From: Anaerolineales bacterium
GTDB taxonomy: Bacteria; Chloroflexota; Anaerolineae; Anaerolineales; UBA11858
Direction of reading: 5' to 3'
Assembly (NCBI GenBank): GCA_016783125.1
Contig: JADHXE010000003.1
Coordinates: 1-54,849, forward strand
DNA: 54,849 nucleotides
Shown here piece after piece: positions 26,715 to 45,558 of this stretch. Numbering within the stretch: the stretch's first letter is position 1; the number at the start of each line of letters is the position of its first letter. The notes beneath the pieces are model-generated. The model was not told where the DNA came from, searched no databases, and was given only the letters and a program-made list of their open reading frames with translations. A program made the translations under genes and the position numbers.

Positions 26715-26730
26715 AATCTCTCTCCCGAGG

Positions 26731-27375: not shown

Positions 27376-27408
27376 TACTTATCTGCGTCCTTATGTTTTC
27401 TCTGGTTC

Positions 27409-27470
27409 GTAGTCAGGCACGAGAGTGCCGTTGTGGATGTGGCAAAACGGCACTCTCGTGCCTGACTACG
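27409..27470. repeat. GTAG-type REP doublet (REPIN-like)
   Basis: gtagtcaggcacgagagtgccgtt ... aacggcactctcgtgcctgactac perfect inverted repeat. Confidence 0.85.
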
Positions 27471-27542
27471 AACCCAATTTGTTCTGCCCGATTATACTGT
27501 ATTGGTAAAAAAACCGCCAAAATTTATGATATTATCTCGCCC

Positions 27543-29066: not shown

Positions 29067-29072
29067 AAGGTA

Positions 29073-29470
29073 ATGATAAGGAAACCAGGAACACAGGAAA
29101 CTATTGTATTCGTCAAGAATACCTTGAACAGATGTCATTGCGAATGGAGCCTGCGGAATGAAGCAATCTCCCCGCCGAATTGGGGATTGCTTCGTCGCAG
29201 AAAGCGCTCCTGCTTAGAAACAAAATGCCCTGTCATTGCGAGAGTTGCTCCACCGCCCGAAGCAATCTCCTGTTCAAAGGGGGAGACTGCTTCGTAATGC
29301 CAACGGCACGCAAAGCGAACGCTCGCAGTGACACAGAATTCGAGTTTCTTTCTGTTTGAGCAGCGCCGATAGCGCTGTGGATTTACTCGCAATGACAGTA
29401 TTGTTCAGGCTTCTGTTGATGAACATAAACACAGAAAAATATTCATGGATTCCTGGTTTCCTCATCGTAA
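29073..29470. repeat. Nested palindromic repeat complex
   Basis: Outer arms aggaaaccagga/tcctggtttcct; middle attcgtcaa..ttgaaca / tgttcag..ttgatgaa; inner GTCATTGCGA...GAAGCAATCTCC...GATTGCTTCG...TCGCAATGAC units. Confidence 0.8.
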
Positions 29471-29506
29471 TTTCACTATCCAGTGTCCTGCTGGCAATCA
29501 CAGTAA

Positions 29507-30412
29507 ATGGAGAATAGATTTCTAAAAACCTGGGTAGAAGGCTGCGCCCGCAACCTTGCCTTTCAGATTATTGTTATGGGCGCTGCTTTTGGACTCTTCC
29601 TGATCCCGGCGCTGATTGCGGCGCTGTGGGGCGGCGACCGGGATACCAATTTCGCCATTTTCATGGGCATCCTGATCTTCATAATCGTGGCCGGAGTTGT
29701 TGGGATAGTCACCTTGGGGGTCAGCAGCATCCGCAAGCGAGCGGCGCAGCTTGATGCCGTCTTTGAACCCTGGAGATTAACGGGGGACCCCTACCTGCAA
29801 AACGGACGCCAGTATCACGGCGATATCAACGGGCGGCAGGTGGATATTTATTTTCACCGCGGGCCGACGCTAGAAATCCATATCGCTGCGCCGCTGCACA
29901 CGCGCGCTGCGGTCGTATTCAAGAGTGAAATTGGCCGCATCTCGGCCAGCCTGGGAGATTACGAAACCGTAGCGCTCAATGATCCAGTATTCCACAACCT
30001 GAGCATCTACGCGTTGGATGCCAACTGGATGAACAAAATCCTGGCAGACGGCCCGGCGCGGGTGGCCATCCGTCAGTTGATGCGCGTCACAGGGGCTTAT
30101 GAACTGCGCCAGATACTGATCCAGCCCGATGCGCTGAAGTTGACCATCCGCCGCGTGGGCATGGAGCAGATCAACCGACAAAATGTGGGAACCTGGCTCG
30201 ATGATCTGTTCACCCTGCTCATGGCGATTGTGGAAGCGCCAGACCCACAAGCAATCACCGTCGCTATGCCGATAGAACGCGCTGTACAAAGCGACCGCGG
30301 ATCGCTGGCGATTCTGGTCGCCGCGGCGGGGTGCAGCATCATCGCCACATTGTCTTTTTATATTCTCGTCATCACGGCCGTGATACGACTCTTTTCCAGC
30401 CTGCTGAACTGA
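29507..30412 (+). CDS. Hypothetical membrane protein (2 N-terminal TM, soluble domain, C-terminal TM)
   Basis: 301-aa ORF with host-like codon bias and clear hydrophobic segments. Confidence 0.7.
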   Translation: MENRFLKTWVEGCARNLAFQIIVMGAAFGLFLIPALIAALWGGDRDTNFAIFMGILIFIIVAGVVGIVTLGVSSIRKRAAQLDAVFEPWRLTGDPYLQNGRQYHGDINGRQVDIYFHRGPTLEIHIAAPLHTRAAVVFKSEIGRISASLGDYETVALNDPVFHNLSIYALDANWMNKILADGPARVAIRQLMRVTGAYELRQILIQPDALKLTIRRVGMEQINRQNVGTWLDDLFTLLMAIVEAPDPQAITVAMPIERAVQSDRGSLAILVAAAGCSIIATLSFYILVITAVIRLFSSLLN

Positions 30413-30440
30413 TCCGCAGTGGTCAGTAAACAGAAAAACT

Positions 30441-30494
30441 CCGAAATTAGGGGAACGGGCGGGGCATTCGCCCCGCCCGTTCCCCTAATTTCGG
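30441..30494. repeat. Long perfect palindrome (MITE core family)
   Basis: ccgaaattaggggaacgggcggggc-attc-gccccgcccgttcccctaatttcgg. Confidence 0.8.
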
Positions 30495-30560
30495 AAAATC
30501 TCTTCCAAGTTGAGATTGTAAAAGTAATCAGTCATCAGTGCGGCGTGCTATAATTTGGGT

Positions 30561-30791
30561 ATGGACGCATCAGATGCCAGGGCTTATATCGAGCGGTGGC
30601 GTGAAGTTGAACTGATTGAACGAATGGAAGCGCAGGCTGCCAGTTTCCAAGATCGTTGGCGGCAGTTGAATGCAATCTTTGGGTTGGCGCACGCGCTGGG
30701 GCTATTCTTAAAGCCGGTAGCCAACCAGGAAGAAGTCGTGTGGCAGCGCTGGGCAAGTTTGAGCCAGATTGAGCGTGATGACCAAGGATAA
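30561..30791 (+). CDS. Small helical protein, putative partner or antitoxin of the downstream nucleotidyltransferase
   Basis: 76 aa; TGcTATAAT 6 nt upstream of the ATG; overlaps the next gene. Confidence 0.65.
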   Translation: MDASDARAYIERWREVELIERMEAQAASFQDRWRQLNAIFGLAHALGLFLKPVANQEEVVWQRWASLSQIERDDQG

Positions 30792-31350
30792 TCCGTCTCT
30801 AAAGCCGTTGTTGGCTCCGCTGGCGGCTCTTCAGCGTCTGCTGAATCGCTATGAGGGTAAGGGGATCATCATTGGAGGAATTGCCGCGAGTCTGCTTGGA
30901 ACACCCCGCCTCACCGCTGATGTAGATGCCCTGGTTCTCCTATCTATTGAGGAACTTCCTGAGTTATTGGATGCAGCGAGGGCAGAAGGGCTAATTGAGC
31001 GGATATCAGACCCACAAACATTTGCCCGCCAACGCCGGGTTGTTCTGCTGCGTCATGATGAAAGCGGCATCGGCATTGACATCTCTTTAGGCACGCTGCC
31101 ATTCGAACAAGAAATGATCGCCCGTAGCATTGTGGTTCAACTCGAAGGCCTGAAAATCCGCCTGCCAACCCCCGAAGATTTGATCATCTTGAAAGCCGTC
31201 GCTCACCGCCCCAAGGATTTACTGGATATTCAGGGGGTTATCCAAAGCCACCCCGACCTCAACCGGGAACGCATACAGGATTGGGTCACCCAATTTGCGC
31301 AGCTTTTGGAGATGCCCGAACTGTGGGAAGATATTGCCGGCTGGCTGTAA
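30778..31350 (+). CDS. Nucleotidyltransferase (DUF6036/AbiEii-like TA component)
   Basis: IIGGIAA..G.PRLTADVD, PTPEDLIILK.VA.RPKD..DI. Confidence 0.8.
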   Translation: MTKDNPSLKPLLAPLAALQRLLNRYEGKGIIIGGIAASLLGTPRLTADVDALVLLSIEELPELLDAARAEGLIERISDPQTFARQRRVVLLRHDESGIGIDISLGTLPFEQEMIARSIVVQLEGLKIRLPTPEDLIILKAVAHRPKDLLDIQGVIQSHPDLNRERIQDWVTQFAQLLEMPELWEDIAGWL

Positions 31351-31373
31351 GACGGGGGGACAAATCACTAAAA

Positions 31374-31421
31374 GTAAAAAAAGAGTGTGGCAGCAAAAAA
31401 GCTGCCACACTCTTTTTTTTA
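31374..31421 (+). terminator. Intrinsic terminator-like hairpin
   Basis: aaaaaaagagtgtggcagc-aaaaaa-gctgccacactctttttttt. Confidence 0.75.
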
Positions 31422-31431
31422 CTAACTCACC

Positions 31432-31503
31432 TTACGCAGAACGTCCCGCAGGTTGCCGTGATTACAGCCTGGTTTTAGAAAAAATCTGCGGGACGGTGCG
31501 TAA
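31432..31503. repeat. Small inverted-repeat element
   Basis: ttacgca..cgtcccgcag ... ctgcgggacg..tgcgtaa. Confidence 0.55.
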
Positions 31504-31575
31504 CATCAGTGCTCCAATTCAGAAACGCATCGCTTTCTTAGGCCCTATTTCCATTCCTTACAACATCGAAACAGT

Positions 31576-31610
31576 TTCTAAACAACTTCTGAACAACTCT
31601 TCGGTAAACT
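31576..31610 (+). promoter_or_regulatory. OmpR-type direct-repeat operator plus -10 box (copy 1)
   Basis: TTCTAAACAAC-TTCTGAACAAC; TAAACT starts 29 nt after the motif start. Confidence 0.75.
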
Positions 31611-31615
31611 GGTAA

Positions 31616-31698
31616 CTAGGTATCAGGTAATTAGGTGATTAGGTATTCGGAAATTTGGATAGCCCCATAACCTAATTACCTGATACCCAATACCTAGC
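31616..31698. repeat. Heptamer/octamer-repeat hairpin in the 5' leader
   Basis: taggtatcaggtaattaggtgattaggtatt ... acctaattacctgatacccaataccta, directly before RBS acaaggag. Confidence 0.8.
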
Positions 31699-31713
31699 CA
31701 CAAGGAGCACACC

Positions 31714-34011
31714 ATGACCACAGGAACTCAAACCATACCCACGAACCCACCCCGAACGCAAACGCTCAACATCAGCCGAGAAAAAATCATCGGTATGGTT
31801 GGCCTACTCGCTATCATCGCGTTAGGCGCTTTTTTGCGTTTCTATCAACTGGGCACATACACCATTGGCAACACCTACTACGCCGCCACGGTCAAATCGA
31901 TGCTGACATCGTGGCATAATTTCTTCTACGCTTCCTTTGAGCCGGGCGGCTCGGTGACCGTGGATAAACCCCCACTGGGCTTCTGGGTACAGACGATTTC
32001 GGCCTATATTTTTGGAGTTAACGGCTTCGCATTAGCCCTGCCGCAAGCCCTGGCCGGGACGCTCTCCATCCCCGTGCTCTATCATTTAGTGCGCAAATAC
32101 TTCGGCATCTGGGCCGGGTTGACCGCCGCATTGGTCTTGGCCCTGATGCCCGTGACCATCGCTACCGAGCGCAACAACACCATCGACGGCCTGCTGGTCT
32201 TTGTACTGCTGCTGGCGGCCTGGGCATTCATCAAAGCCACCGAGACGGGCAAAACCCGCCACCTGCTGATGGGCGTCATCCTGGTCGGGCTGGGCTTCAA
32301 TATCAAAATGCTGCAAGCCTTCATGCCCCTGCCGGCTTTCTACGCCATCTACTTCTTCGGCGCCCGCACCCCCTGGTGGAAGCGCATCCTGCAACTTGGG
32401 GCAGCGACCATTGTTTTGCTGGTGGTCTCTTTCGCCTGGGTCGTGGCCGTCGATCTGACCGCCGCCGACCAGCGCCCCTACATTGGCAGCAGTGATAACA
32501 ATACCGTGATGGAGTTGATCATCGGTCACAATGGGCTGAGTCGTTTGGGACTCGCCGGAGGCGGGCGCGGTCCTGGGGGGAATGATGGTCCCCAGGCTGG
32601 AGCCGACGGCCCTTCGATCTCCCCTTCGGGGACAGGACAGGCAAACCAATCTCCGGGTGGGTTCGTGCCCCCTGGGCAAAATCCTGCTCCCGGAGCGAAT
32701 CCAGCCAACGACCGCCAGCCGCCCCAAGAAGCTATCGAAGCCTGCAGCAGTCTGACTGAAAGCGAGGCTTGCACTGTCAACCTGCCCAACCGAGATATCG
32801 CAGGAACTTGTCTCACCTTCTCGCAAGGGGAACTTGTCTGCGTGCCGGAAGACAGGGTGCCGCCAGCCAATGCAGCTACGCCTGGACAAACTCCCAATGG
32901 CCCTGACGGTCAAGTACCCGATGGCGGTCCAGGCGGCCCTGGAGGCGGTGGCCCCTCTGGCGAGACGGGTACCGCTGGCGTGCTGCGCCTGTTCGAAGAG
33001 CCGCTGGTCACTGAGGCCAGCTGGCTGCTGCCGCTGGTTTTGCTGGGCTTCCCGGTGACGCTGGTTGCAGCTGTTCGTAGTGACGTTCGTAGTGACGGCT
33101 TCAGCCGTCCGAGTGCGACTAAAGTCGCTACTACGAACCAAATTTGGAAAGATAATAAAATCCGAAGTCTGCTGCTGTGGGCGGGTTGGCTGCTGCCTTC
33201 CATTGCGTATTTCAGCTTCACTACCGGCCTGTTCCATCGCTACTACCTGATCATGATAGGGCCCCCACTGGCGGCCCTAGTTGGCATCACACTCTGGGCG
33301 ATAGCCAAACACTGGAAACAGAACCACTGGGTCGGTTGGACAGTAGCAGCCTTCATCAGCGGGTTGACGATTATCTTCGAGATTTACATCTTCCGCAATT
33401 ACCCCAATTATGCTGGCTGGGTAACGGTGATCTCCCTGCTGCTCTGGTTGGCCGGAATTGGCATCCTGGCCCTGAGCAAACTGCTGCCTGTTCACAGAGT
33501 AGGCCTAGCCCTGGTGCTGACCGCCATGCTGGTGGCCCCCTTCACCTGGTCGGCTTTGACCACCCTCAACACCAACCCCAACGTGGCTTTGCCAACCGCG
33601 GGCATCGAGGCCTCCGATCAAACCCGGGCTACCTTCATGACCCCCAACCAGACCACGCTCAGCACCAACGGACAGGTCATCCTGGATTACCTGCTGGTCA
33701 ACACCGACCCTGACGATTATTTACTGGCCACGCTCAACGCCCGCGGCGCGGCTCCTTACATCCTTGAAACCGGGCGCAAAGTATTGACCTTCGGCGGCTT
33801 CGGTGGCAGAGATGATGTGGTGGGCCTGGACGACCTGACTGAAATGATCGAGAACGGCGAATTGCGTTACATCCTTGGCATCCCGCAGGGTAAGCAAGAG
33901 ATCGCCCAATGGGTGGTGAGTAGCTGCACTGTTGTAGACATCCAGACTTCCGAAGTCTCCAGTCCGCGCGGCGGCCAAAACGAAGAGGTGCTCTATGACT
34001 GCGGAGCCTAA
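31714..34011 (+). CDS. ArnT/PMT-family (GT-C, YkcB-like) glycosyltransferase with Gly/Pro-rich and 4-Cys inserts
   Basis: N.YYAA.V.SM..SWHNFF, VTVDKPP, R.N..D, GFNIKMLQA, RPYIGSS..N...ELI.G.NG..R, FH.YY, GGF.G.D. Confidence 0.9.
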   Translation: MTTGTQTIPTNPPRTQTLNISREKIIGMVGLLAIIALGAFLRFYQLGTYTIGNTYYAATVKSMLTSWHNFFYASFEPGGSVTVDKPPLGFWVQTISAYIFGVNGFALALPQALAGTLSIPVLYHLVRKYFGIWAGLTAALVLALMPVTIATERNNTIDGLLVFVLLLAAWAFIKATETGKTRHLLMGVILVGLGFNIKMLQAFMPLPAFYAIYFFGARTPWWKRILQLGAATIVLLVVSFAWVVAVDLTAADQRPYIGSSDNNTVMELIIGHNGLSRLGLAGGGRGPGGNDGPQAGADGPSISPSGTGQANQSPGGFVPPGQNPAPGANPANDRQPPQEAIEACSSLTESEACTVNLPNRDIAGTCLTFSQGELVCVPEDRVPPANAATPGQTPNGPDGQVPDGGPGGPGGGGPSGETGTAGVLRLFEEPLVTEASWLLPLVLLGFPVTLVAAVRSDVRSDGFSRPSATKVATTNQIWKDNKIRSLLLWAGWLLPSIAYFSFTTGLFHRYYLIMIGPPLAALVGITLWAIAKHWKQNHWVGWTVAAFISGLTIIFEIYIFRNYPNYAGWVTVISLLLWLAGIGILALSKLLPVHRVGLALVLTAMLVAPFTWSALTTLNTNPNVALPTAGIEASDQTRATFMTPNQTTLSTNGQVILDYLLVNTDPDDYLLATLNARGAAPYILETGRKVLTFGGFGGRDDVVGLDDLTEMIENGELRYILGIPQGKQEIAQWVVSSCTVVDIQTSEVSSPRGGQNEEVLYDCGA
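33073..33138. repeat. GTAG-type REP doublet inserted in frame in the glycosyltransferase
   Basis: gttcgtagtgac x2, ggcttcagcc, gcgactaaagtcgc, tactacgaac; 66 bp = VRSDVRSDGFSRPSATKVATTN. Confidence 0.8.
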
Positions 34012-34099
34012 TCCTGAAGATTGATGATTGGGGTCAAAGCACATTTGATGCAGACAAGAATGCCATGCTGAATATTCCAAGCATGATATACTTTTAGTT

Positions 34100-34381
34100 G
34101 TGAAAATTCGCCAAATCATCTGGCCGAAAGACCGGACAGATCACATAGCCCATCACAATGTGACCCCCGAAGAATTCGAAGAAATATGTTTCGGAGATGC
34201 ACTGGTATTACGCTCAAAATCCGAAGGGAAAAATCCGGTTTATTACGTATACGGGCAAACAACTGCTAACCGCTACCTGCTCTGTATTGTCATTCACTTT
34301 CCAGATAGTAATGGATATCCAATTACGGCCAGAGAAATGAATACTAGCGAAAAACGCCGTTTCAGAAAGCGAAAAAGATGA
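34100..34381 (+). CDS. BrnT-like toxin
   Basis: W......HIA.H.VT.EE.EE, YYVYGQT...RYL..V, Y.ITAR.M...E.R. Confidence 0.8.
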   Translation: MKIRQIIWPKDRTDHIAHHNVTPEEFEEICFGDALVLRSKSEGKNPVYYVYGQTTANRYLLCIVIHFPDSNGYPITAREMNTSEKRRFRKRKR

Positions 34382-34626
34382 TGAGTAAAATTCCCCAATT
34401 TAAATCTGTTCAGGAAATGGAAGTTTTCTGGCAGAAAAACAGCCCGCTCGATTTTAAAGATGAATTAGAAAAAATGAGTGATCCAATCTTCGTCCGTAAA
34501 TCTGCCATAGAAGTTCCATTACAACCCCAGGAAATGGAAGTAGTAAAAAAGATTGCTGAAGGGCAAGGTCTTGATGACGGAGAACTTATCCGACAATGGG
34601 TTCTTGAAAAACTGCAATTTGTATAA
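34378..34626 (+). CDS. BrnA/CopG-like antitoxin
   Basis: IPQFKS..E...FW and a C-terminal RHH-like LIRQWVLEKL; ATGA coupling to the toxin. Confidence 0.75.
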   Translation: MMSKIPQFKSVQEMEVFWQKNSPLDFKDELEKMSDPIFVRKSAIEVPLQPQEMEVVKKIAEGQGLDDGELIRQWVLEKLQFV

Positions 34627-34807
34627 TATTTTCTCTATCGGCACGTTGTATTAGAGTATTACTCAGCGCAGGCTTATTCTGGCATGCTTGTGAGGCACAC
34701 ACAGCTAATCGCCAAGAAAAAACTAAAACAAAGCGGACAGTCCATCGAATAAACTTGATGGACTGTCTTTTTTGAGCACATATTACCACCTGGGGAAATT
34801 ACTCAAA

Positions 34808-34853
34808 ATCTAAATAGCTTCTAAACAATATCTAAATATGTTTTGTGTATGCT
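34808..34853 (+). promoter_or_regulatory. Direct-repeat operator plus -10 box (copy 2)
   Basis: atctaaatagc-TTCTAAACAAT-ATCTAAATATG; TATGCT starts 29 nt after 34819. Confidence 0.7.
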
Positions 34854-34900
34854 ATTGAAGAAGATTTTCATTCAATCAGTAAAAACGATTTTAGTTAAAA

Positions 34901-35359
34901 ATGAATACAACAATATTCAAACATACACTTTCCACTCACAGATTCCATCTCCCAGTTTGGCTCGTCCAGATCTGGAAATTCATGACCGTCGGCGTTCTCA
35001 ATACCCTCATCGACGCCGCGGTCTACTTCGCCCTGACGCGCTGGCTGGGGTTGGGATCGCTACCGGTGCTGGCCAAAGGCATTGCCTACGCCGTCGGCAT
35101 GACTAACAGTTTCTACTGGAACCGCACCTGGACTTTCAAATCCCAGAGCAATTCCTTCGACACGGCTCAGGACAGGCTCTGGCGGGCAGCCTTCCTGTTC
35201 ACGCTGACCCACATCGCCGCCCTGGGCATCAACGCTGGTGTCATGTACCTGGGCCTGGAGACGTTTAATCTTAGTGAAGTCATCTCCCTCGCCCTGGCAA
35301 CCGGCGCGTCGTTCGGCTGGAATTTTATCTTGAATAAATTGGTAGTTTTCAAAATGTAA
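34901..35359 (+). CDS. GtrA-family lipid-sugar flippase
   Basis: KF..VG.LNTLID, NSFYWNR.WTF, WNF.LNK..VF. Confidence 0.9.
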   Translation: MNTTIFKHTLSTHRFHLPVWLVQIWKFMTVGVLNTLIDAAVYFALTRWLGLGSLPVLAKGIAYAVGMTNSFYWNRTWTFKSQSNSFDTAQDRLWRAAFLFTLTHIAALGINAGVMYLGLETFNLSEVISLALATGASFGWNFILNKLVVFKM

Positions 35360-35362
35360 TGA

Positions 35363-35440
35363 TTCACCGCAAAGAACGCCAAGCACGCAAAGAAAAACAC
35401 AACAGTTTATCTTAGCGATCTTCGCGCCTTGGCGGTGAAA
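35363..35440. repeat. Nonamer (CGCAAAG/CGCCAAG-type) palindromic repeat
   Basis: ttcaccgcaaagaacgccaagcacgcaaag ... cttagcgatcttcgcgccttggcggtgaa. Confidence 0.8.
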
Positions 35441-35457
35441 GAGAAAAGGACAAAACT

Positions 35458-36189
35458 ATGCAATCATTATCCATTGTTCTCCCCGCATATAACGAAGAAG
35501 CCAACGTGCGCACCACCGTCGCGGAGGTGGCTGGCATAGCCCAAAAACTTGGCCTCGACCACGAGATCATCCTGGTCAACGACGGCAGCCGCGACCGCAC
35601 CGGCGAGATCGGACGCGAGCTGGCTGCTTATATCCCAGAGTTCCGTCTGGTGGAGCACTATCCCAACCGTGGCTATGGCGGGGCGCTAAAGGCTGGTTTC
35701 GCCGCTGCCCGCAAGGATTTGATCACCTTCTTCCCCGGTGATAATCAATTCCGCTTCGAGGAGATCACCCGCCTGCTGGAGCGCCTTGACGACGCAGACG
35801 CTGACATCGTCTGCGGCTACCGCGCCAACCGTCAGGACCCCTTCATGCGCAAGGTCAACGCCTTTGGCTGGAATATGCTCATACGGATTCTGTTTGGCTA
35901 TCTGTGCCAAGACATCGACTGCGGCTTCAAGCTTTTCCGCCGGGATGTGCTCTCGCACGTGTCTATTAAATCCGATGGAGCACTGATTGATACAGAATTC
36001 CTCTCCAGTGCGCGCCGTCTGGGCTGTCGCATCGAAGAAGTACCTGTAACTCATCGTCCCCGTATCGGCGGCGAGGCCACGGGAGCGGATATCCATGTGA
36101 TCATCAAAGCCTTCCGCGATTTATGGGAGCTATTGCAGGAGCAAATCAACGCAACTGGCTACCTGAAGTGGCGTTTTGGACTCAGATGA
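35458..36189 (+). CDS. GT2 polyprenol-phosphate glycosyltransferase (DPM1-like)
   Basis: LSIVLPAYNEE, VNDGSRDRT, NRGYGGA, DIDCGFKLFRR; DxD site reads PGDNQ. Confidence 0.9.
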   Translation: MQSLSIVLPAYNEEANVRTTVAEVAGIAQKLGLDHEIILVNDGSRDRTGEIGRELAAYIPEFRLVEHYPNRGYGGALKAGFAAARKDLITFFPGDNQFRFEEITRLLERLDDADADIVCGYRANRQDPFMRKVNAFGWNMLIRILFGYLCQDIDCGFKLFRRDVLSHVSIKSDGALIDTEFLSSARRLGCRIEEVPVTHRPRIGGEATGADIHVIIKAFRDLWELLQEQINATGYLKWRFGLR

Positions 36190-36308
36190 TTAAGCAACTC
36201 ATTGGACAATAAATATCTCCACTTATTCAGAGTTTTCCAGGAAAGAGCGCAGTGTATTTGTGCCTTTCCTGGAAAAATTGAGAAAAACATAAATCAAACC
36301 CAAAACAC

Positions 36309-36343
36309 TTCTAAACAACTTCTGAGCATTTTTGGGGTAAGAT
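36309..36343 (+). promoter_or_regulatory. Direct-repeat operator plus -10 box (copy 3)
   Basis: TTCTAAACAAC-TTCTGAGCATT; TAAGAT starts 29 nt after the motif start. Confidence 0.75.
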
Positions 36344-36344
36344 A

Positions 36345-36431
36345 GGGATTAGGAATCAGGGATTAGGAATCAGGTATCAGGGATCAGTGTATCCCTGATA
36401 CCTGATCACCTGATCACCTGATTACCCAATC
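36345..36431. repeat. Heptamer-repeat hairpin in the 5' leader
   Basis: gggattaggaatcagggattaggaatcaggtatcaggg ... ccctgatacctgatcacctgatcacctgattacccaatcc. Confidence 0.8.
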
Positions 36432-36562
36432 CACAAGGAGTACCCCATATCCTCATCATGGCGATTTAATTACCTCGTTGGCTTGCAGCCTTTTTCAATT
36501 CGCTTGAAACACACCCAAACCATCCAAGCGAGCAATCTGAATAAGTATCAGGAGAGAGAAAT

Positions 36563-38317
36563 ATGAAATCTAAACTCAGGCACCACCAACGCGTGCAGTT
36601 TGCCCCCTTTAGCATTTTGCTCTTTGCCATTCTTTTTGTCCTGCTCCTAGGGCTGGCATGCAAAACACCTACAACCGAAAGCTCTAATAAGACCCAGGTC
36701 GCTCTCAATGTTCAGGCTACGCGACTTGCTCAGAGTGAAACACAAACTGCCCAGGCTGAAGCCGAGGCAAAACAACAGAAAGAGATCTCTGACCAACAAG
36801 CTACTCTCGACGCTCAAGCCACAAAAGACGCCCAGGCTGATGCGGAGCAGGTCCAGGCTGCGGAAGAAGCGCCCGTGGAGGCAGAATCCGCACCGGGCGC
36901 AGAAACAGCCCCGGCGGAAGCCCCGCCCCCAACAGATGCCGCTTATCCCATCGTAGATACCGGTCAGGTATATTGTTATGAAAACGGCGGGGGCATCCCC
37001 TGTCCCACCGAAGGCCAACCCTTCTATGGGCAAGACGCCCAATATAGCGGGAACGCCCCCAGCTACACCGATAACGGCGACGGCACGATCAGCGACAACG
37101 TCACCGGCCTGATGTGGCAGCAAGACCCCGGCGACAAGATGGGCTACGCCCAGGCCGTAACCGGAGCCGAGAGCTTCAATTTGGCTGGATATGACGACTG
37201 GCGGCTGCCGACGATCAAAGAGCTGTACTCGTTGATCCTGTTCAGCGGCTATGACGTCAGCGGCTGGAACGGAACAGATACCTCGGGGCTGATCCCGTTC
37301 ATTGATGAGGTCTTTGCCTTCGAGTATGGCGATACCAACAGCGGCGAGCGCATCATCGACTCACAATGGGCCACCAGCAGCGTCTACACCGGCACGGTCT
37401 TTGGAGGCCAAGAGGCCATGTTCGGCGTCAACTTCGCCGATGGGCGCATCAAGGGCTATCCCACCGGCTCAGGCGGCGGCCCGAGCAAAACCTACTTTGT
37501 GATTTATGTGCGCGACAACCCCGAGTACGGCATCAACGATTTCGTCAACAACGGGGACGGCACAATCGGCGACAACGCCACCGGCCTGGTCTGGATGCAG
37601 TCGGATAGCGGCAACGCGCTGGACTGGGAAGGCGCGCTCAACTACTGCGAGAGCCTGGACTTCGCCGGGATTAGCGATTGGCGTTTGCCCAACGTCAAAG
37701 AGCTGCAAAGCATCGTCGATTACAGCCGCGCGCCCGATACCACCAACTCGGCCGCCATCGACCCGCTCTTCAACGTCACTTCGATTACCAATGAAGCCGG
37801 CGCGACGGACTATCCCTTCTACTGGAGCAGCACCACCCATGCCAACATGCAAAGCGGTGGGAGTGCGTCTTACGTGTCCTTCGGCAGAGCCTTAGGCTAC
37901 ATGAACGGTCAATGGATGGATGTGCACGGAGCGGGCGCGCAGCGCAGCGACCCCAAGAGCGGCGACCCCTCCGAGTGGCCCACCGGCCGCGGCCCGCAGG
38001 GCGACGCCATCCGTATCTACAACTATGTGCGCTGTGTGATCGGCGGCGTATCGAGCGAAGTCGTCACCGGCGGCGAAGCAGACCCCAATATCGGCGCAGG
38101 TCTGGGTGAACTACCCGACCTGGATAAAGGCCCAGGGCAAGTCCCTGGCGTACAGCCTCCCCCTTCACCGGAAGCCATCGACGCCTGCACAAGCCTGAGC
38201 GCCGGCGCGGCCTGTTCGTTCAACACGCCCATTGGCTCAGCCAGCGGAAGCTGCACGCAAATTGCCGTGCCAAATCTAACGGTACTGGCCTGCGTGCCCG
38301 AGATCGGGCTGCCGTAG
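36563..38317 (+). CDS. Tandem DUF1566 (Lcl-type) domain lipoprotein with a C-terminal 4-Cys module
   Basis: Lipobox LGLAC, IVDTGQ..CY, two copies of NGDGTI.DN.TGL.W.Q...DWRLP..KEL, DVHGAGAQRSDPK. Confidence 0.88.
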   Translation: MKSKLRHHQRVQFAPFSILLFAILFVLLLGLACKTPTTESSNKTQVALNVQATRLAQSETQTAQAEAEAKQQKEISDQQATLDAQATKDAQADAEQVQAAEEAPVEAESAPGAETAPAEAPPPTDAAYPIVDTGQVYCYENGGGIPCPTEGQPFYGQDAQYSGNAPSYTDNGDGTISDNVTGLMWQQDPGDKMGYAQAVTGAESFNLAGYDDWRLPTIKELYSLILFSGYDVSGWNGTDTSGLIPFIDEVFAFEYGDTNSGERIIDSQWATSSVYTGTVFGGQEAMFGVNFADGRIKGYPTGSGGGPSKTYFVIYVRDNPEYGINDFVNNGDGTIGDNATGLVWMQSDSGNALDWEGALNYCESLDFAGISDWRLPNVKELQSIVDYSRAPDTTNSAAIDPLFNVTSITNEAGATDYPFYWSSTTHANMQSGGSASYVSFGRALGYMNGQWMDVHGAGAQRSDPKSGDPSEWPTGRGPQGDAIRIYNYVRCVIGGVSSEVVTGGEADPNIGAGLGELPDLDKGPGQVPGVQPPPSPEAIDACTSLSAGAACSFNTPIGSASGSCTQIAVPNLTVLACVPEIGLP

Positions 38318-38323
38318 GAATTT

Positions 38324-38535
38324 GCCCTCACCCCCAGCCCCTCTCCCGATTTCGGGAGAGGGGTGTCAAGCAAATCTCATACCGGTTGGCAGCCCAACCG
38401 CGTTGGGCGGGTTTGGAAAGACGCGGGCAGCCATAAGAAAACGCCCTCACCCGGCCTGTCGCTACGCTCCAGCCTCCCCTCTCCCAAAATTGGGAGAGGG
38501 ACAAACCTGAGCGCAGCGAAGGTCAGGGTGAGGGC
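38324..38535. repeat. CCCTCACCC/CCCTCTCCC...GGGAGAGGG repeat cluster
   Basis: gccctcacccccagcccctctcccgatttcgggagagggg, a second copy near 38443-38500, and a closing arm gggtgagggc. Confidence 0.8.
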
Positions 38536-38654
38536 AAAACGAGCAACCTTCAACAAGCAAACCACGAACGCTCGCTTTGCGCACCTTTGGCGAGGACACA
38601 AAGGATCGCAAAGATTTTTATGACAGGGCAATCGCATATGATTGTTAGCTCAAA

Positions 38655-38764
38655 CCCCGGCGACTGGAAGTCGCAGCGACGCTTGCAAAGTCGCCCTGCG
38701 GCGACTGGATTCCAACCTGCGCAGGCAGGATTCGCAAATGTTGCTGCGACTTCCAGTCGCCGGG
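38655..38764. repeat. REP-like long palindrome
   Basis: cccggcgactggaagtcgcagc ... gctgcgacttccagtcgccggg with two inner hairpins. Confidence 0.85.
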
Positions 38765-38821
38765 CACGGTGGTGTGATTGTCATAATAATTTGTAAAGGA
38801 GAGGGCCAAAAGGAACACACC

Positions 38822-40375
38822 ATGCACACAAAAAAACTACTCCTAATCACGATAACGCTCATCACAACCCTGGCCTGTTCGCTCGTCTCCGGAGTCGCCG
38901 AACAGACCGAAATCTCGCCAACGACAACCGTTGCGGCCATCAGCGCCGATGAGCCGCCCGCCGTTTCGCAGCCCGAAAGTCAAGCACAACCCGCTTCGGG
39001 TGAGGCGCTGTACCTGTTCGCACCGAACCACTCGACGGATACTTATTTGATGAACAGCGAGGGCGCCGCCATGTACACCTGGACGAGCGTCTACAACCCG
39101 GGCAACGCGGTCTATCTACTGGAAAACGGCAATCTGCTGCGTACCGGCACGGTGAAAACAGACGTATTCGACGCGGGCGGTTCCGGCGGCATTGTACAGG
39201 AGATCGCCCCGGACAGTTCGGTGGTTTGGGAATACCGTTACGCCGACGATCAGGCACAGCAGCATCATGATATCGAGCAGATGCCGGATGGCAATATCCT
39301 GATGATCGCCTGGGAATACAAAACACGGGCCGAGGCCATTGCCGCCGGGCGCGAACCCGGTCTGTTGAAAGGTGGCGAACTCTGGCCTGATCATGTTATT
39401 GAAGTTGATCCTGCCACCAACGAGATCGTCTGGGAGTGGCATATCTGGGATCACCTGGTGCAGGATCATGACCCGGCGCAAGCCAATTACGGCATGGTAA
39501 CCGAGCATCCCGAGTTGATCAACATCAACTTCATCAGCCGCCAGGCCGCCGCCGACTGGAATCACATCAACTCGATTGACTACAACGCCGAACTGGACCA
39601 GATCGTGCTCAGCGTGCATAATTTCAGCGAGATCTGGATCATCGATCATGGCACGACTACCGAAGAAGCCGGCGGCGCGGCGGGCGATCTGCTCTACCGT
39701 TGGGGTAATCCACAGACCTACGACGCTGGAACCGCAGCTGATCAACAATTTTATGTTCAGCACGACGCCCAATGGATTCCTTCCGACTATCCCGGCGAGG
39801 GGAATATCCTGGTATTCAACAACGGTGAAAAAAGATCGCGATCTTATTCATCCATCGATGAAATTACGCCCCCGCTCAATCCCGATGGCTCTTACACCCT
39901 GACCTCTGGATCAGCCTATGGTCCCGAAGCGCCTGTGTGGACTTATGTCGCAGAAAACCCTGCCGACTTCTTCGCCGATCATATCTCCGGCGCGCAGCGA
40001 TTACCCAATGGGAACACACTGATCTGCAGCGGCACGGATGGCGTTTTCTTCGAGGTCACGCCGGAGGGCGAAGTGGTTTGGCGCTATGACTACGGCAGGG
40101 ATGTGTTCCGCGTGATGAAAATCTCCGCCGATGACCCCCGGCTGGCGGGCTTGAACTTGCAGCCCGGCGAGACGTTGAAAGCAGAAAGCGGCCCCAATGG
40201 CCAACCCTCGGGAACAGGACAGCCCCCGGGAAACAACGGCCCACCCCAAAGGGCGCGTGATGCGTGTGCTGACTTGGCCGTCGGCGCGGCTTGCTCGTTC
40301 GAAAACCCCAAGGGGACGGTGAGCGGCTCTTGTCAATCCATCCAGGGGCAGTTAACCTGTGTGCCGGAGAAGTAA
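38822..40375 (+). CDS. Aryl-sulfate sulfotransferase (ASST-like beta-propeller) lipoprotein with a C-terminal 4-Cys module
   Basis: Lipobox TLAC, YLLENGNLLR, QHHD, DWNHINSIDYN, LYRWGNP..Y, QHDA, SGAQRLPNGNTLI. Confidence 0.88.
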   Translation: MHTKKLLLITITLITTLACSLVSGVAEQTEISPTTTVAAISADEPPAVSQPESQAQPASGEALYLFAPNHSTDTYLMNSEGAAMYTWTSVYNPGNAVYLLENGNLLRTGTVKTDVFDAGGSGGIVQEIAPDSSVVWEYRYADDQAQQHHDIEQMPDGNILMIAWEYKTRAEAIAAGREPGLLKGGELWPDHVIEVDPATNEIVWEWHIWDHLVQDHDPAQANYGMVTEHPELININFISRQAAADWNHINSIDYNAELDQIVLSVHNFSEIWIIDHGTTTEEAGGAAGDLLYRWGNPQTYDAGTAADQQFYVQHDAQWIPSDYPGEGNILVFNNGEKRSRSYSSIDEITPPLNPDGSYTLTSGSAYGPEAPVWTYVAENPADFFADHISGAQRLPNGNTLICSGTDGVFFEVTPEGEVVWRYDYGRDVFRVMKISADDPRLAGLNLQPGETLKAESGPNGQPSGTGQPPGNNGPPQRARDACADLAVGAACSFENPKGTVSGSCQSIQGQLTCVPEK

Positions 40376-40454
40376 CAGGTAGGGAAACAAGGGAAACAAG
40401 GGAAACAAGTATTTTGCTCACATGCCACTTGCCCACTTGCACTATAATAAACCC

Positions 40455-41150
40455 ATGACCAAAACCATCCTCGTCGTAGACGATAAAGCTAACGTGCGCA
40501 CGCTGCTTAGAGAATATCTCACCGAAGAGGGTTTCCGCGTAGCCACCGCCGAGAACGGCAGAGAAGCCCTCTTCGTGGCGCGCCACGAGCAGCCCGATCT
40601 GATCATCCTCGACATTATGATGCCCGAGATGGGCGGTTACGATTTCATGCGCGCCTACCGCAAAGAGAGCGAGACGCCCATCATCATGCTGACTGCCAAG
40701 CTGGAAGAAACCGACAAGGTGCTGGGCCTGGAGTTGGGCGCCGATGACTATGTCACCAAGCCCTTCGGCATGAAAGAAATGGTGGCGCGCATCCGGGCTG
40801 TGCTGCGGCGAACCAGCCAGGCCGCGCCGCCGCCCAATATCCTGCGCGGGGGCAGTATCACCCTCAATCAAGACGAACACACCGTAAAGGTAGGCGAGCA
40901 ATTCGTCGACCTGACCCCCTCGGAGTTCGATCTGCTGGGGGTGCTGATGTCCGCCCCGGGACGCGTCTTCTCCCGCCTGGATCTGCTGGAAAGATTGCAG
41001 GGGACAGCCTTCGAAGGCGTTGAGAGGACGATTGACGTGCATGTCCGCAACCTGCGCACCAAAATCGAGGCGGATCCCAGCGACCCGCGGCGCATCGAGA
41101 CGGTCTTTGGGGTGGGTTATCGGTTTAGGGGAGTAGGGAGTAGGGAGTAG
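40455..41150 (+). CDS. OmpR/PhoB-family response regulator
   Basis: ILVVDD, LDIMMP, GADDYVTKPF, LTPSEFDLL, RTIDVHVRNLR.K, TVFGVGY; TATAAT 6 nt before the ATG. Confidence 0.95.
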   Translation: MTKTILVVDDKANVRTLLREYLTEEGFRVATAENGREALFVARHEQPDLIILDIMMPEMGGYDFMRAYRKESETPIIMLTAKLEETDKVLGLELGADDYVTKPFGMKEMVARIRAVLRRTSQAAPPPNILRGGSITLNQDEHTVKVGEQFVDLTPSEFDLLGVLMSAPGRVFSRLDLLERLQGTAFEGVERTIDVHVRNLRTKIEADPSDPRRIETVFGVGYRFRGVGSRE

Positions 41151-41208
41151 GGGAGTAGGAAGTTTACTTATTCCTTACCCCCCTACTCCCTACTCCTTAC
41201 TCCCTACC
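41126..41208. repeat. (GGGAGTA)n/(TACTCCC)n heptamer hairpin overlapping the regulator stop codon
   Basis: ggggagtagggagtagggagtaggggagtagg ... ccctactccctactccttactccctacc. Confidence 0.85.
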
Positions 41209-41217
41209 AACACCACC

Positions 41218-42771
41218 ATGCGTTCTCTCGCCCCCAAACTCCTCCTGGCCTTCCTGGCCGTCAGCCTGACCGTGGCGTTATTAGCTGCGGCTATCACGCG
41301 TTACACCACTCAGCAAGATTTCGCCGAGTTGGTGCTGAGCAACACCCAGAACAATTTCATCGACCGGGCTACCACCTATTATCAAATAAAAGGGTCTTGG
41401 CGCGGCTTTGCTGAGTCAATCCTGCGCCGACAGAATCCGCCGCTTGCGCAGCCCCAACCCGAAGGGAATCTGCAAAATCCGCTTCCCGGACAGCAACTGC
41501 CACAGCAGCAGTTTCAGCAGCTTCCGCAACAAAGAGAAAAACCACCGCTAGAACAACTGGAAACTCAACCGCTGACCTTTGCCCTCATCGACACCCGCGG
41601 ACGCGTCGTCCTGCCTGCCGGGGAGTATCGTATGGGGGATTTGCTTTCAGATGCTGATTTGATGGAGGGAACAGCGATTGTAATCGACGGCCAAACCGTG
41701 GGCACAGTCATCGCCACGGGGGATATCCCTCCATTGGCTCTGCGCGAGGAGCAATTCTTAGAGCGGATCAATCAATCTCTGCTCTACGCCACCCTCGGCG
41801 CCATGGCTGTGGCGCTGATCATCAGCCTGGTGCTGACCCGGGGTCTCACCCGCCCGCTGCGTGAACTAACCTCCGCCATTCAAGCCACTGCCAAGGGAGA
41901 AATGGGGCAGCAAGTGCGCGTTCGTTCAGAAGATGAAATTGGGCAGTTAGCCCAGGCCTTCAACCAGATGAGCGCTGACCTGGCGCACCTCAGCGGGCAG
42001 CGCCGCCAGATGACCGCTGACATCGCCCACGACCTGCGCAACCCGCTGACCGTCATCGCCGGCTATATCGAGTCTATGCGTGATGGCGTGCTCAAACCCA
42101 CCCCCGAACGCCTGGAGACCATCTTCAACGAAGTCCACCATTTGCAGCGCCTGGTGGATGACCTGCGCACGCTATCCCTGGCCGAGGCTGGCGAGTTATC
42201 GCTCAACCTGGCCCCTGTCGCTCCAGAGGCTCTGCTCAAACAAATCCAGGCTGCCTACCAACATCCCGCTGAACAACAGCAGATCACCTTGAATGTACAA
42301 GCCGAACCCGATCTGCCGCACATCAACGTCGATCCAGACCGTATGATGCAGGTTCTGGGTAATCTGGTCAGCAATGCTTTGCGGTACACGCCGGAGGGAG
42401 GGGAGATAGCGATCAGCGGGGAGCGGCGCCAAAGGCGTGCAAAGCAAGCGGAGAGCGGAGAGCGGGGAGCGGGGAGCGGGGAGCAGTCGGTCGCCGGTCG
42501 TCGGTCATCGGTCGTCTTCACTGTCACCGACACCGGCCCCGGCATCAACCCCGCCGATATAGCGCGCATCTTTGATCGCTTCTACCGGGGCGATGAGTCT
42601 CGTCAAGGCGTGGGGGGCGAGTCCGGGTTGGGGTTGGCGATAGCCAAATCGATTGTCGAAATGCACGGGGGGAAGATCAGCGTTGAGAGTGAGTTGGGGC
42701 GGGGGACGAGTTTTATTATTGCGCTGCCTGACTTACCGGGGGTTGGACGCGGTCTAAGTGCCGCCAACTGA
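41218..42771 (+). CDS. BaeS-like HAMP sensor histidine kinase with a repeat-derived insert in the HATPase domain
   Basis: Two TM helices, HAMP (DEIGQLA.AFN.M), H-box IAHDLRNPL, N-box NL.SNALRY, DTGPGI, FDRFYR, SGLGLAI. Confidence 0.95.
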   Translation: MRSLAPKLLLAFLAVSLTVALLAAAITRYTTQQDFAELVLSNTQNNFIDRATTYYQIKGSWRGFAESILRRQNPPLAQPQPEGNLQNPLPGQQLPQQQFQQLPQQREKPPLEQLETQPLTFALIDTRGRVVLPAGEYRMGDLLSDADLMEGTAIVIDGQTVGTVIATGDIPPLALREEQFLERINQSLLYATLGAMAVALIISLVLTRGLTRPLRELTSAIQATAKGEMGQQVRVRSEDEIGQLAQAFNQMSADLAHLSGQRRQMTADIAHDLRNPLTVIAGYIESMRDGVLKPTPERLETIFNEVHHLQRLVDDLRTLSLAEAGELSLNLAPVAPEALLKQIQAAYQHPAEQQQITLNVQAEPDLPHINVDPDRMMQVLGNLVSNALRYTPEGGEIAISGERRQRRAKQAESGERGAGSGEQSVAGRRSSVVFTVTDTGPGINPADIARIFDRFYRGDESRQGVGGESGLGLAIAKSIVEMHGGKISVESELGRGTSFIIALPDLPGVGRGLSAAN

Positions 42772-43897: not shown

Positions 43898-44033
43898 GAA
43901 ACATCTCCGTCTGCAGGGAAAATGGATCCATCAATACCCTGATGATAACACAATCTGCGCGTATTCGCAAAACGATTGCGGATTTGTTCAAACTTTATAT
44001 TCTCACGAGGTAACTGCTTAGCCACGAAATTGA

Positions 44034-44222
44034 TTACTGTCCTTCTACATCAATAAGTACCGCTCTGACTGCCAGACGCCAGCCGTACTCCCCGCTGGAT
44101 TCATCGAAGCCCTGGCAGGTGATCAGCGTGAGCACGTCGTAGTCTTCATGCGGCAGGGCGCGCACTTCGTAAACGTGTTTCTGCCCCCAGGCATGGATGA
44201 TGATCTGGCCGCCGTGCAGCAT
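44034..44222 (-). pseudogene. C-terminal fragment of a sortase gene
   Basis: YEVR...LTLITC...RLAVRA (TLxTC plus catalytic Arg); N-terminal half with catalytic His and membrane anchor absent. Confidence 0.75.
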
Positions 44223-44250
44223 CGAGCTTTACAAATTCCAAGTATGAAAA

Positions 44251-44362
44251 CACGAATGATGACGAATATCACGAATTGCACGAATAAAGCGGGGAGTAAT
44301 TTCCCCCCAAAGTATGCCCCGAGTGATGCCGAAGGGTTGGGGGGTTGGGGGGTTAGGGGGGC
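44251..44362. repeat. Nonamer (CACGAAT) run plus a G-rich heptamer repeat remnant
   Basis: cacgaatgatgacgaatatcacgaattgcacgaat; gggttggggggttggggggttagggggg. Confidence 0.6.
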
Positions 44363-44417
44363 AGTAAGGATCAGGATGGAATACCGTAAGAACTGGCGTT
44401 TCTGCTATAATCATCAG

Positions 44418-45413: not shown

Positions 45414-45441
45414 AAATTCGCGCACAAGCTGAAGCAAATCG

Positions 45442-45558
45442 TAACTGCTCAGTCATAGAGAGAAAGTTCCCGAAAAAAGGGTGTGCGTGGGGGGCGAGCG
45501 CAACTGCCCCCACGCACACCCTTTTTTCGGGGTATCTCTCCTTTAGCCTGGGTAGTTA
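45442..45558. mobile_element. MITE copy B
   Basis: TIRs taactgctcag / ctgggtagtta; core nearly identical to copy A. Confidence 0.7.

Follow-up and report, generated by a model that had tools for sequence, protein, structure and literature searches.

A four-cysteine module shared by three otherwise unrelated extracytoplasmic proteins of an Anaerolineales gene cluster

Three copies of one module in a gene cluster

The window analysed here, a stretch of 54,849 nucleotides of Anaerolineales DNA (GenBank assembly GCA_016783125.1, contig JADHXE010000003.1), contains a gene cluster in which a small four-cysteine module is encoded three times: in a loop of a glycosyltransferase and at the C-termini of two lipoproteins, one of the DUF1566/Lcl_C family and one of the ASST family. 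A preliminary description of this DNA had placed the same module at these three points and had taken it for a single mobile unit common to proteins that are otherwise unrelated; the translations, their alignment and a genome-wide search with a profile hidden Markov model (HMM) bear out the former and support the latter. The copies, and the genes that carry or adjoin them, lie as follows.

32719..32850, + strand: module copy 1, in the long extracytoplasmic loop of the GT-C glycosyltransferase; HMM E-value 3.5e-29; kept in 19 orthologues across the order
38156..38302 (core 38162-38299), + strand: module copy 2, at the C-terminus of the DUF1566/Lcl_C lipoprotein; HMM E-value 4.4e-26; found in orthologues
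40241..40372, + strand: module copy 3, at the C-terminus of the ASST lipoprotein; HMM E-value 1.3e-27; found in orthologues
31714..34011, + strand: YkcB-type GT-C glycosyltransferase; Pfam PMT_2 at residues 84-242, YkcB_C at residues 657-735
34901..35359, + strand: GtrA-family membrane protein (flippase-type partner of the glycosylation system); Pfam GtrA_DPMS_TM, E-value 2.8e-26
35458..36189, + strand: GT2 glycosyltransferase of the polyprenyl-phosphate sugar synthase type; Pfam Glycos_transf_2, E-value 1.5e-30
36563..38317, + strand: DUF1566/Lcl_C lectin-like lipoprotein with the C-terminal module; Pfam Lcl_C, E-value 5.2e-42; lipobox LGLAC
38642..40375, + strand: ASST-family protein with the C-terminal module; Pfam Arylsulfotrans, E-value 4.2e-26; lipobox TTLAC
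40422..41150, + strand: OmpR-family response regulator (Pfam, NCBIfam), 47 nucleotides after the ASST gene
41218..42771, + strand: BaeS-like sensor histidine kinase; Pfam HAMP, HisKA and HATPase_c; Pro/Gln-rich periplasmic region at residues ~27-183

The copies are 42-47 residues long, each preceded by a Gly/Pro/Gln-rich linker and each containing the expected four-cysteine motif, with the common pattern PP-x-EA-x2-AC-x8-C-x12-C-x8-12-C-x-P. Copy 1, residues 336-379 of the 765-residue PMT_2 + YkcB_C glycosyltransferase, translates as PPQEAIEACSSLTESEACTVNLPNRDIAGTCLTFSQGELVCVPE; copy 2, residues 534-580 of the 584-residue Lcl_C/DUF1566 protein, as PPPSPEAIDACTSLSAGAACSFNTPIGSASGSCTQIAVPNLTVLACVPE; and copy 3, residues 534-576 of the 577-residue ASST protein, as PPQRARDACADLAVGAACSFENPKGTVSGSCQSIQGQLTCVPEK. 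Their alignment has 18 invariant columns, among them the four cysteines, the A-C pair, the glycine two positions before Cys3 and the final CVPE, and pairwise BLASTP comparison gave E-values of 2e-12 and 3e-13 at 43-51% identity. When an HMM built from the three copies was run against the whole assembly (4.33 Mb, 88% complete, searched as 85,108 stop-to-stop frames), only the window copies matched, with E-values of 3.5e-29 to 4.4e-26, the next frame being at 0.35. A chance resemblance between the three is excluded. A loose regular expression for the cysteine spacing found 16 frames in the genome, namely the three copies and 13 others without any further feature of the motif.

The carrier of copy 1 is recognised by Pfam through PMT_2 (118.4 bits; cut-off 26.1) and YkcB_C (68.1 bits; cut-off 27), so that the protein of the earlier 'GT39 loop' is, by its Pfam domains, a GT-C enzyme of the PMT_2/YkcB type. 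Its first loop is of the DKPPLG type, D84-K-P-P-L-G being invariant among 23 orthologues. A scan of hydropathy and charge delimits the module-bearing loop to residues 247-435 (nucleotides 32452-33018), 189 residues that are acidic and rich in Gly and Pro; we place it outside the membrane on account of its charge bias and of the homology of its module to secreted copies. The signal peptides of the DUF1566 and ASST proteins end in the lipoboxes listed above, the start of the ASST protein probably being Met61 (about 38822), from which the reading frame gives a lipoprotein signal peptide. There is no terminator-like site on the + strand between the DUF1566, ASST, regulator and kinase genes, which may therefore be co-transcribed, whereas a strong terminator-like hairpin (34735-34768) lies downstream of the glycosyltransferase region. 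The carriers had been described as co-regulated; in the form of co-transcription this may hold for the two lipoproteins together with the regulator and kinase.

With its GT-C, GtrA and GT2 genes, the window has all three parts of a three-component glycosylation system of the kind to which Bacillus subtilis YkcC/YkcB belongs. Such extracytoplasmic systems have been reviewed (PMC8035078), and ykcB is presented, in bioRxiv 10.1101/2022.08.30.505962, as a glycosyltransferase expected to use C55-P-glucose on surface components. A possible difference of the Anaerolineales YkcB-type enzymes is that the module is mounted in their loop between two long Gly/Pro linkers. ASST enzymes move sulfate between phenols. 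DUF1566/Lcl is reported to bind sulfated glycosaminoglycans in Legionella (PMC11162425). A sulfate theme among the neighbouring genes is thus seen in DUF1566 and ASST.

The module family, its fold and its cysteines

Run against 1.84 billion representative proteins, the three-copy profile matched 1355 of them at E ≤ 1e-3, of which 255 also pass E ≤ 1e-10. The best 150 relatives, ranked by summed score and hence with a bias in favour of repeat-bearing proteins, are mostly of 110-350 residues and consist of a signal peptide followed by tandem modules on Pro-rich or basic linkers; a domain scan found one copy in 1 of them, two in 79, three in 36 and four to eight in 34. The spacing C-x8-C-x12/13-C-x8-13-C holds in 399 of the 423 extracted copies. 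Cys1 and Cys3 are present in 100% of these and Cys2 and Cys4 in 99%, and high conservation is also found for A8, before Cys1 (96%), G29, two positions before Cys3 (99%), P43, two positions after Cys4 (97%), and the PP start (93-94%). The three window copies, scored by the family profile at E-values of 6e-15 to 7e-17 per genome, have the PP-x-EA-x2-AC start, the cysteine spacing, the glycine two before Cys3 and the proline two after Cys4 that define the family, which is known from Chloroflexota, Myxococcota and Pseudomonadota. The module is a real, autonomous extracytoplasmic four-cysteine mini-domain of a large, unnamed bacterial family. The DUF1566 orthologues in L027, L025 and L035 have a shortened first hairpin, with a Cys2-Cys3 spacing of 8 rather than 12 (CSVGPGSGTC).

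The preliminary description had not recognised the module as any named domain, and the databases agree: the isolated copies had no Pfam match at E ≤ 10 and no NCBIfam match at E ≤ 1, and among the best 150 relatives only two, P0008 and P0029, pass a Pfam model over the module, that of PF24155 (DUF7406), with 40.7 and 41.4 bits against a gathering threshold of 28.4. The matches of these two proteins are repeated and partial, covering the Cys1-Cys3 part (profile positions 14-42 of 52), so that the DUF7406 model probably derives from a narrow branch of a superfamily to which the module also belongs. The other 148 relatives do not reach DUF7406 at E ≤ 1e-4, and in the genome the model found nothing at the window copies, its best match lying elsewhere with an E-value of 1.2. 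DUF7406 is a family without assigned function, whose name was not found in a literature search; the window copies fail its gathering cut-off, and the module overlaps the edge of this family at most.

Structure prediction had been suggested as a check, and AlphaFold2, run on a 48-row alignment, returned a confident model (pLDDT 89.2, pTM 0.61) with a helix at residues 3-10 and strands at 17-22, 25-34 and 37-42, so that the predicted fold is a short helix packed on a three-stranded sheet. A search of PDB sequences with the 48-row profile gave no match (best E-value 0.59), and Foldseek with the model gave 0 matches in the PDB at E ≤ 1e-3. The top Foldseek match was the antifungal protein NFAP2 (PDB 8rp9), which is likewise small and disulfide-rich and aligned over 48 columns with a query-normalised TM-score of 0.65 and a probability of 0.98; with an E-value of 0.12, 23% identity, an rmsd of 3.4, a fungal origin and no sequence relation, it is an analogue at most. 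The SlyD/SlpA insert domains and fibronectin type I modules, which came lower among the Foldseek matches, were rejected as weak. In the ESM Atlas only unnamed clusters were found ('hypothetical', 'putative lipoprotein'), from Myxococcota and Pseudomonadota.

The four cysteines probably form two structural disulfides rather than a metal site, a reading that we base on the joint loss of Cys2 and Cys4, the absence of CxxC and the secreted location. Variants that have lost cysteines number only four modules, two each in P0049 and P0089; in all four Cys2 and Cys4 are missing together and the signature of the fold is kept, which suggests the pairing Cys1-Cys3 and Cys2-Cys4. The strand register of the model, which places Cys3 opposite Cys4, is not readily reconciled with this pairing. 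All carriers are secreted proteins, lipoproteins or ectodomains, and a periplasmic or surface location favours disulfides. The metal site that had been suggested earlier finds no support in the x8/x12/x8-12 spacing, in the lack of CxxC and of any conserved His, Asp or Glu ligand, or in the co-loss of Cys2 and Cys4. Zinc ribbons and zinc fingers have two CxxC/CxxH knuckles and require four ligands, which the module does not provide. Nor does it have the cysteine-stabilised alpha-beta motif of defensin-like proteins, in which a CxxxC in the helix is paired with a CxC in a strand: it has one cysteine at the end of the helix and a single cysteine per strand, and neither CxxxC nor CxC.

History, hosts and neighbouring genes of the module

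Apart from the genome of the window, 12 of 13 genomes in the genus have the module, and so do 20 of 36 in the family; it is present in one of the 24 genomes of the order's other families that were sampled first, and in five of 300 further genomes of the phylum, all five from one other family of the same order and with hits mostly in glycosyltransferase frames of 715-780 residues. The arrangement GT-C(module)-GtrA-GT2 ... DUF1566(module)-ASST(module)-regulator-kinase recurs, whole or in part, in regions from six other genomes of the genus (G002, G003, G004, G006, G007 and G009), the corresponding region of G010 holding only DUF1566-ASST-regulator-kinase; ASST paralogues free of the module also exist (446 and 442 residues). 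A tree of 51 modules clusters them by type of host and not by genome, with nine label changes against a mean of 26.6 after shuffling (reached in none of 200 shuffles), although it is based on 43 columns and many of its forks are unresolved. The tree indicates that the three fusions are old, vertically inherited and kept by selection, without concerted evolution. Hairpin motifs of the CTVNLPNRD type are specific to the type of host, for example to the glycosyltransferase copies, and are kept across genera. At the DNA level the three window copies show many synonymous differences, from which it follows that they are not the product of a recent duplication; these differences and the tree together rule out recent duplication or gene conversion as their source.

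A listing of host architectures, also among the checks proposed at the outset, was made from 67 longer proteins retrieved through a word index, and shows a promiscuous range of hosts with the module on Pro/Gly tethers, at termini or in loops. Of these proteins, 28 have no Pfam domain (tandem arrays), 15 have Lcl_C, 11 YHYH, seven YkcB_C with or without PMT_2, three ASST, two a Ser/Thr kinase domain and one CotH. The module is C-terminal in Lcl_C, YHYH and ASST proteins, whereas the CotH protein has it close to its N-terminus and the glycosyltransferases have it in a loop; in the Ser/Thr kinases it forms the extracellular C-terminus, beyond the membrane helix. P0013 has a DUF1566 domain followed by four C-terminal modules, and P0019 has N-terminal modules ahead of a subtilase (Peptidase_S8). 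The genomes of relatives also encode small carriers, lipoproteins of 142-150 residues with little beyond the linker and one module, and large ones, lipoproteins of 590-673 residues with a Pro-rich tether, one or two N-proximal modules and a domain of about 400 residues with LTXXQ-like motifs. This last domain reaches no Pfam family above its cut-off (LTXXQ, 22.2 and 16.4 bits; cut-off 24.3). The large carriers, from the genus and the family, are located as follows.

L023, 11571-13589, - strand: lipoprotein of the 590-673-residue type
L033, 9929-11698, + strand: lipoprotein of the 590-673-residue type
L028, 3109-4896, - strand: lipoprotein of the 590-673-residue type

A small, disulfide-stapled appendage domain is a familiar kind of thing. 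The fungal CBM1 modules and the dockerins are appendages of about 40 residues, found at the end of a Pro/Gly/Ser-rich linker on many unrelated enzymes, and CBM1, which behaves much as an address tag, has four cysteines and a three-stranded sheet. The module resembles both in size, in its terminal, linker-borne position and in the number of unrelated hosts, and CBM1 also in its four cysteines and three strands. It differs from them in having no Pfam match, no aromatic platform and no Ca-binding loops, and in being bacterial, found also in tandem arrays and insertable in the loop of a membrane enzyme. A dockerin or EF-hand docking module (Dockerin_1) was rejected, as there was neither a Pfam match nor conserved Asp/Asn loops. 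The family, the fold and the link to BaeSR-like genes described below appear to be new as far as Pfam, NCBIfam, the PDB, Foldseek against the PDB, the ESM Atlas and a slight literature search reach.

A second, helical tag occurs on the same kinds of host. In one Anaerolineae genome (G359, locus L045) the glycosyltransferase has the four-cysteine module, whereas the DUF1566 and ASST orthologues have this other tag, so that the three proteins need not share one tag. It is a repeat of the form ...PQIDFAAAAxxLGVTEEALxxALG... or ...DFxxAAAQLGVTEEALxxALG..., two copies of which end both lipoproteins.

L045, 12630-12824: helical tag, Anaerolineae metagenome-assembled genome
L045, 15222-15416: helical tag, Anaerolineae metagenome-assembled genome

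A search for the helical tag found 62 proteins (P0215-P0276), mostly Lcl_C, with two ASST and two YHYH proteins among them; it occurs as well in proteins of 107-275 residues made of tandem copies, several with a lipoprotein signal. Pfam gives it weak, helix-turn-helix-like matches only, and a regular expression for the tag found none in the genome of the window. These two unrelated tags share a host range and a manner of use, and they were exchanged in concert in the two lipoproteins; no other observation speaks so strongly for the module as an address or interaction handle without a part in enzyme chemistry.

Loci from elsewhere were collected in a metagenome scan seeded on PPQEAIDA, which gave 80 of 123 confirmed loci; with a plasmid locus included, 66 loci have at least 1 kb of flanking sequence. 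In 15 of the 66, a gene for an OmpR-type regulator or a kinase lies within 700 bp of the module gene, whereas the 130 kb of sequence more than 3 kb away contain a single gene of this kind. On the Paracoccus seriniphilus plasmid (locus L047), a hypothetical protein of 93 residues with one module adjoins a regulator-kinase pair. One group consists of related loci that come for the most part from a few sample series; here the module gene adjoins a gene for an OmpR-type winged-helix protein, the receiver domain of which is, in the one case tested, only weakly recognisable (20.4 bits; cut-off 30.2). In another group, of eight loci, a two-cysteine form of the module is fused to an LTXXQ/Metal_resist domain (E-values 1e-14 to 2e-16); the best NCBIfam matches of the one member scanned, from L098, are Spy and CpxP, and in four of the eight loci a kinase and a regulator lie alongside, the regulator being closest to BaeR (316 bits; cut-off 380). 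Module genes are thus placed non-randomly next to OmpR-type/BaeS-like systems and Spy/CpxP-like proteins. As further observations, tandem-module genes stand beside periplasmic EF-hand proteins of 180-204 residues and OmpR-type regulators in L051, L058, L060 and L070, and in L061, L066 and L072 the module gene has Metal_resist/LTXXQ proteins and ECF sigma factors in its vicinity.

The kinases of the window, of the Paracoccus plasmid and of the Spy-like group have BaeS_SmeS/BaeS as their best NCBIfam family, with 264, 351 and 465 bits, respectively (cut-off 500), in matches that span the whole length including the periplasmic part. For the window kinase the scores are 264.3 bits against NF012163 and 233 bits against NF007837 (cut-offs 500 and 603), over residues 4-407, so that by its sequence it is BaeS-like and not an equivalog. 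The three have a common sensor plan, consisting of a membrane helix, a helix of the GSWRxF type, a Pro/Gly/Gln-rich stretch, a strand FxLxDxxG and a second membrane helix, and their sensor regions are alike beyond composition (z from 4.0 to 13.8; the score was reached in none of 300 block shuffles). The window kinase has a long Pro/Gln-rich sensor insertion at residues ~70-110; similar Pro/Gly-rich stretches are seen in the kinases of L047, L098, L071 and L100.

CpxP with CpxA, Spy in the BaeSR regulon and LpqB with MtrB are periplasmic accessory proteins of envelope-stress two-component systems. The present genes resemble these systems in that module genes adjoin OmpR-type regulators and BaeS-like kinases, that one group has the LTXXQ fusion and that two lipoproteins precede the regulator-kinase pair of the window. 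They differ in that the module itself has no LTXXQ motif and another predicted fold, and in that the window kinase, at 264 bits, stays below the BaeS cut-off of 500.

Possible roles of the module

The preliminary description had offered a docking tag, a metal or redox sensor and an envelope-binding domain as possible functions. A docking tag remains the best class of explanation, in view of the flexible tethers, the several ectoenzymes, the second tag, the two-component neighbours and the weak support from the co-folding of two modules described below. We tentatively favour, and with some doubt, the reading that the module is an interaction or address handle which directs its carriers to some protein partner that is not itself a module. 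It would be non-catalytic and without a metal site, a portable handle on Pro/Gly-rich tethers, which small secreted proteins and lipoproteins have in tandem arrays and which surface enzymes and lectins have as a single appendage. In the window it would mark three membrane-tethered proteins, the YkcB-type glycosyltransferase, the DUF1566 lipoprotein and the ASST lipoprotein, in a cluster that ends in a BaeSR-like system, and would most likely act by gathering them at a partner that they have in common on the outside of the membrane. The foremost candidate for this partner would be the periplasmic sensor region of the BaeS-like kinase, with the carriers acting as accessory inputs to, or effectors of, its signalling circuit; taken overall, we think it unlikely that the sensor is the partner. 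A wider version, in which the module is a universal 'plug' read by the sensor region of BaeS-like and perhaps other OmpR-partnered kinases, so that a lectin, a sulfotransferase, a lipid-linked-sugar transferase, a Spy-like chaperone and the tandem arrays would all be inputs of one stress circuit, with the helical tag as an alternative plug, is likewise improbable.

Several observations weigh against such a handle and, in particular, against its being read by the kinase. Binding by the module is itself putative, and the residues outside the structural core form a mostly variable surface across the family. The split tags of G359 have been mentioned. No regulator or kinase gene adjoins the module gene in 51 of the 66 loci, and the 15 loci in which one does are not independent, falling by eye into about six groups. 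The sensors of the L071 and L100 kinases are of a second type (z of 0.2 against the window kinase), which means that more than one type of sensor lies beside module genes. Among 60 relatives, 18 have both the module and the BaeS-like sensor, 12 the sensor alone, three the module alone and 27 neither, a co-occurrence that is suggestive and that is confounded by kinship and incomplete assemblies. Finally, spy is a member of the regulon in Escherichia coli, and by analogy the adjacency to two-component genes may mean that module genes belong to the regulon, and not that their products are ligands of the kinase.

If the modules bound each other instead, they would assemble the glycosyltransferase, DUF1566 and ASST proteins into one complex, and the tandem arrays found elsewhere would be multivalent scaffolds. 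The same tag on several ectoenzymes and the stand-alone arrays of 2-9 copies agree with such homotypic docking, as does the sharing of one type of tag by DUF1566 and ASST in every genome looked at (four-cysteine in the genus, helical in G359). When the module of the GT-C enzyme (19-row alignment) was co-folded with that of ASST/DUF1566 (22-row alignment), the pair scored 0.53 in three runs, against at most 0.01 for three controls, with at least 98% of contacts in agreement between runs and a partner pLDDT of at least 87, a result classed as 'weak support'. The mark applied is reached by 116 of 157 solved complexes and by two of 215 mismatched pairs, scores of at most 0.60 being those of 18 of the 157 and of both passing mismatches (rough counts, made with our own alignments); a pass at or below 0.60 is wrong more often than not, except where the pairing was already probable. 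Moreover, with two homologous chains that share a fold and with controls that fold badly (pLDDT 42-70), the contrast flatters the module pair, and we give this result little weight. In G359 the glycosyltransferase keeps the four-cysteine module while both lipoproteins have the other tag, the modules are not homogenised within genomes, and no tandem-array protein was found in the genome of the window by the HMM in all frames; we consider homotypic docking quite unlikely. Anchoring to the envelope, in which the module would hold its carriers by binding a wall or surface polymer such as peptidoglycan, a secondary wall glycan or a sheath, is unlikely too. LysM, SLH and small carbohydrate-binding modules sit at the ends of long linkers, in tandem and on many ectoenzymes, and the module is like them in all three respects; it can also be exchanged for another repeat tag, and the adjoining genes build or decorate glycans. 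A conserved aromatic or polar platform is missing, however, since conservation is limited to F/V at position 20 and to structural residues; Foldseek against the PDB gave no match of fold to a known carbohydrate-binding module, and the family spans monoderm Chloroflexota and diderm Myxococcota and Pseudomonadota, whose envelopes differ.

The module might, with a still smaller probability, do no more than cap or space flexible linkers as a rigid, protease-resistant bead, without any specific partner. Conservation is indeed confined to the cysteines, glycine, proline and the hydrophobic core, the surfaces being variable, and some DUF1566 orthologues shorten the first hairpin (Cys2-Cys3 spacing 8); we nevertheless regard a passive role as very unlikely, given the hairpin motifs that are specific to the type of host and kept across genera (CTVNLPNRD in the GT-C copies), the concerted exchange of the module for another tag in the two lipoproteins and the non-random placement beside regulators. 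It is highly improbable that the folded module is an acceptor, O-glycosylated by the GT-C/GtrA/GT2 system encoded with it. Eukaryotic enzymes glycosylate folded EGF, TSR, cadherin and IPT domains, the module genes of the window lie beside a complete three-part lipid-linked glycosylation system, and hydroxy residues are frequent after Cys2 (S/T, 76%) and before Cys3 (T/S, 68%), yet the three-gene system adjoins the module gene in none of 27 scanned metagenome and plasmid loci (a PMT_2 gene lies about 1.8 kb off in L064), the enzyme itself bears the module, and strand propensity also explains S, T and V beside cysteine. For a metal or redox sensor, in which the four cysteines would bind metal or cycle between thiol and disulfide to report the redox state of the envelope, one may cite their invariance, the Metal_resist/LTXXQ, YbjQ, EF-hand and multicopper-type proteins among some neighbours and the link to envelope-stress signalling; the x8/x12/x8-12 spacings without CxxC knuckles, the lack of conserved His, Asp or Glu ligands, the joint loss of Cys2 and Cys4 in four modules of two proteins and the location, which favours disulfides, leave this role extremely improbable.

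If the reading as an interaction or address handle is correct, an abundant unannotated domain (at least 1355 sequence clusters) gains a definition, a fold and a testable role, the handle being accessible to experiment with a reagent of 44 residues. To our knowledge, the reception of signals by BaeS-type kinases is poorly understood, and the adjacency to BaeSR-like genes and the Spy/CpxP-like fusion would bear on it; a plug of the kind outlined above would amount to a modular wiring of accessory sensors to a two-component system. The helical tag on the same hosts suggests that, in Anaerolineae, address tags for surface enzymes form a larger system that has so far gone unrecognised.

Other genes around the cluster are of less direct concern. 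Two small overlapping open reading frames (34100-34381 and 34378-34626), similar to a BrnT toxin and a CopG-type antitoxin with 28.5 and 25.6 bits, below the Pfam cut-offs, separate the glycosyltransferase gene from that for GtrA and precede the hairpin at 34735-34768; in relatives GtrA comes directly after the glycosyltransferase, so that the pair looks like an insertion. An Rfam scan of positions 26000-46000 of the window gave no match. Just upstream of the glycosyltransferase gene lies a gene for a nucleotidyltransferase of the DUF6036/DUF2204/AbiEii type (30769-31350), and farther upstream are genes for a conserved membrane protein of 301 residues and an M1 peptidase, which are syntenic in relatives.

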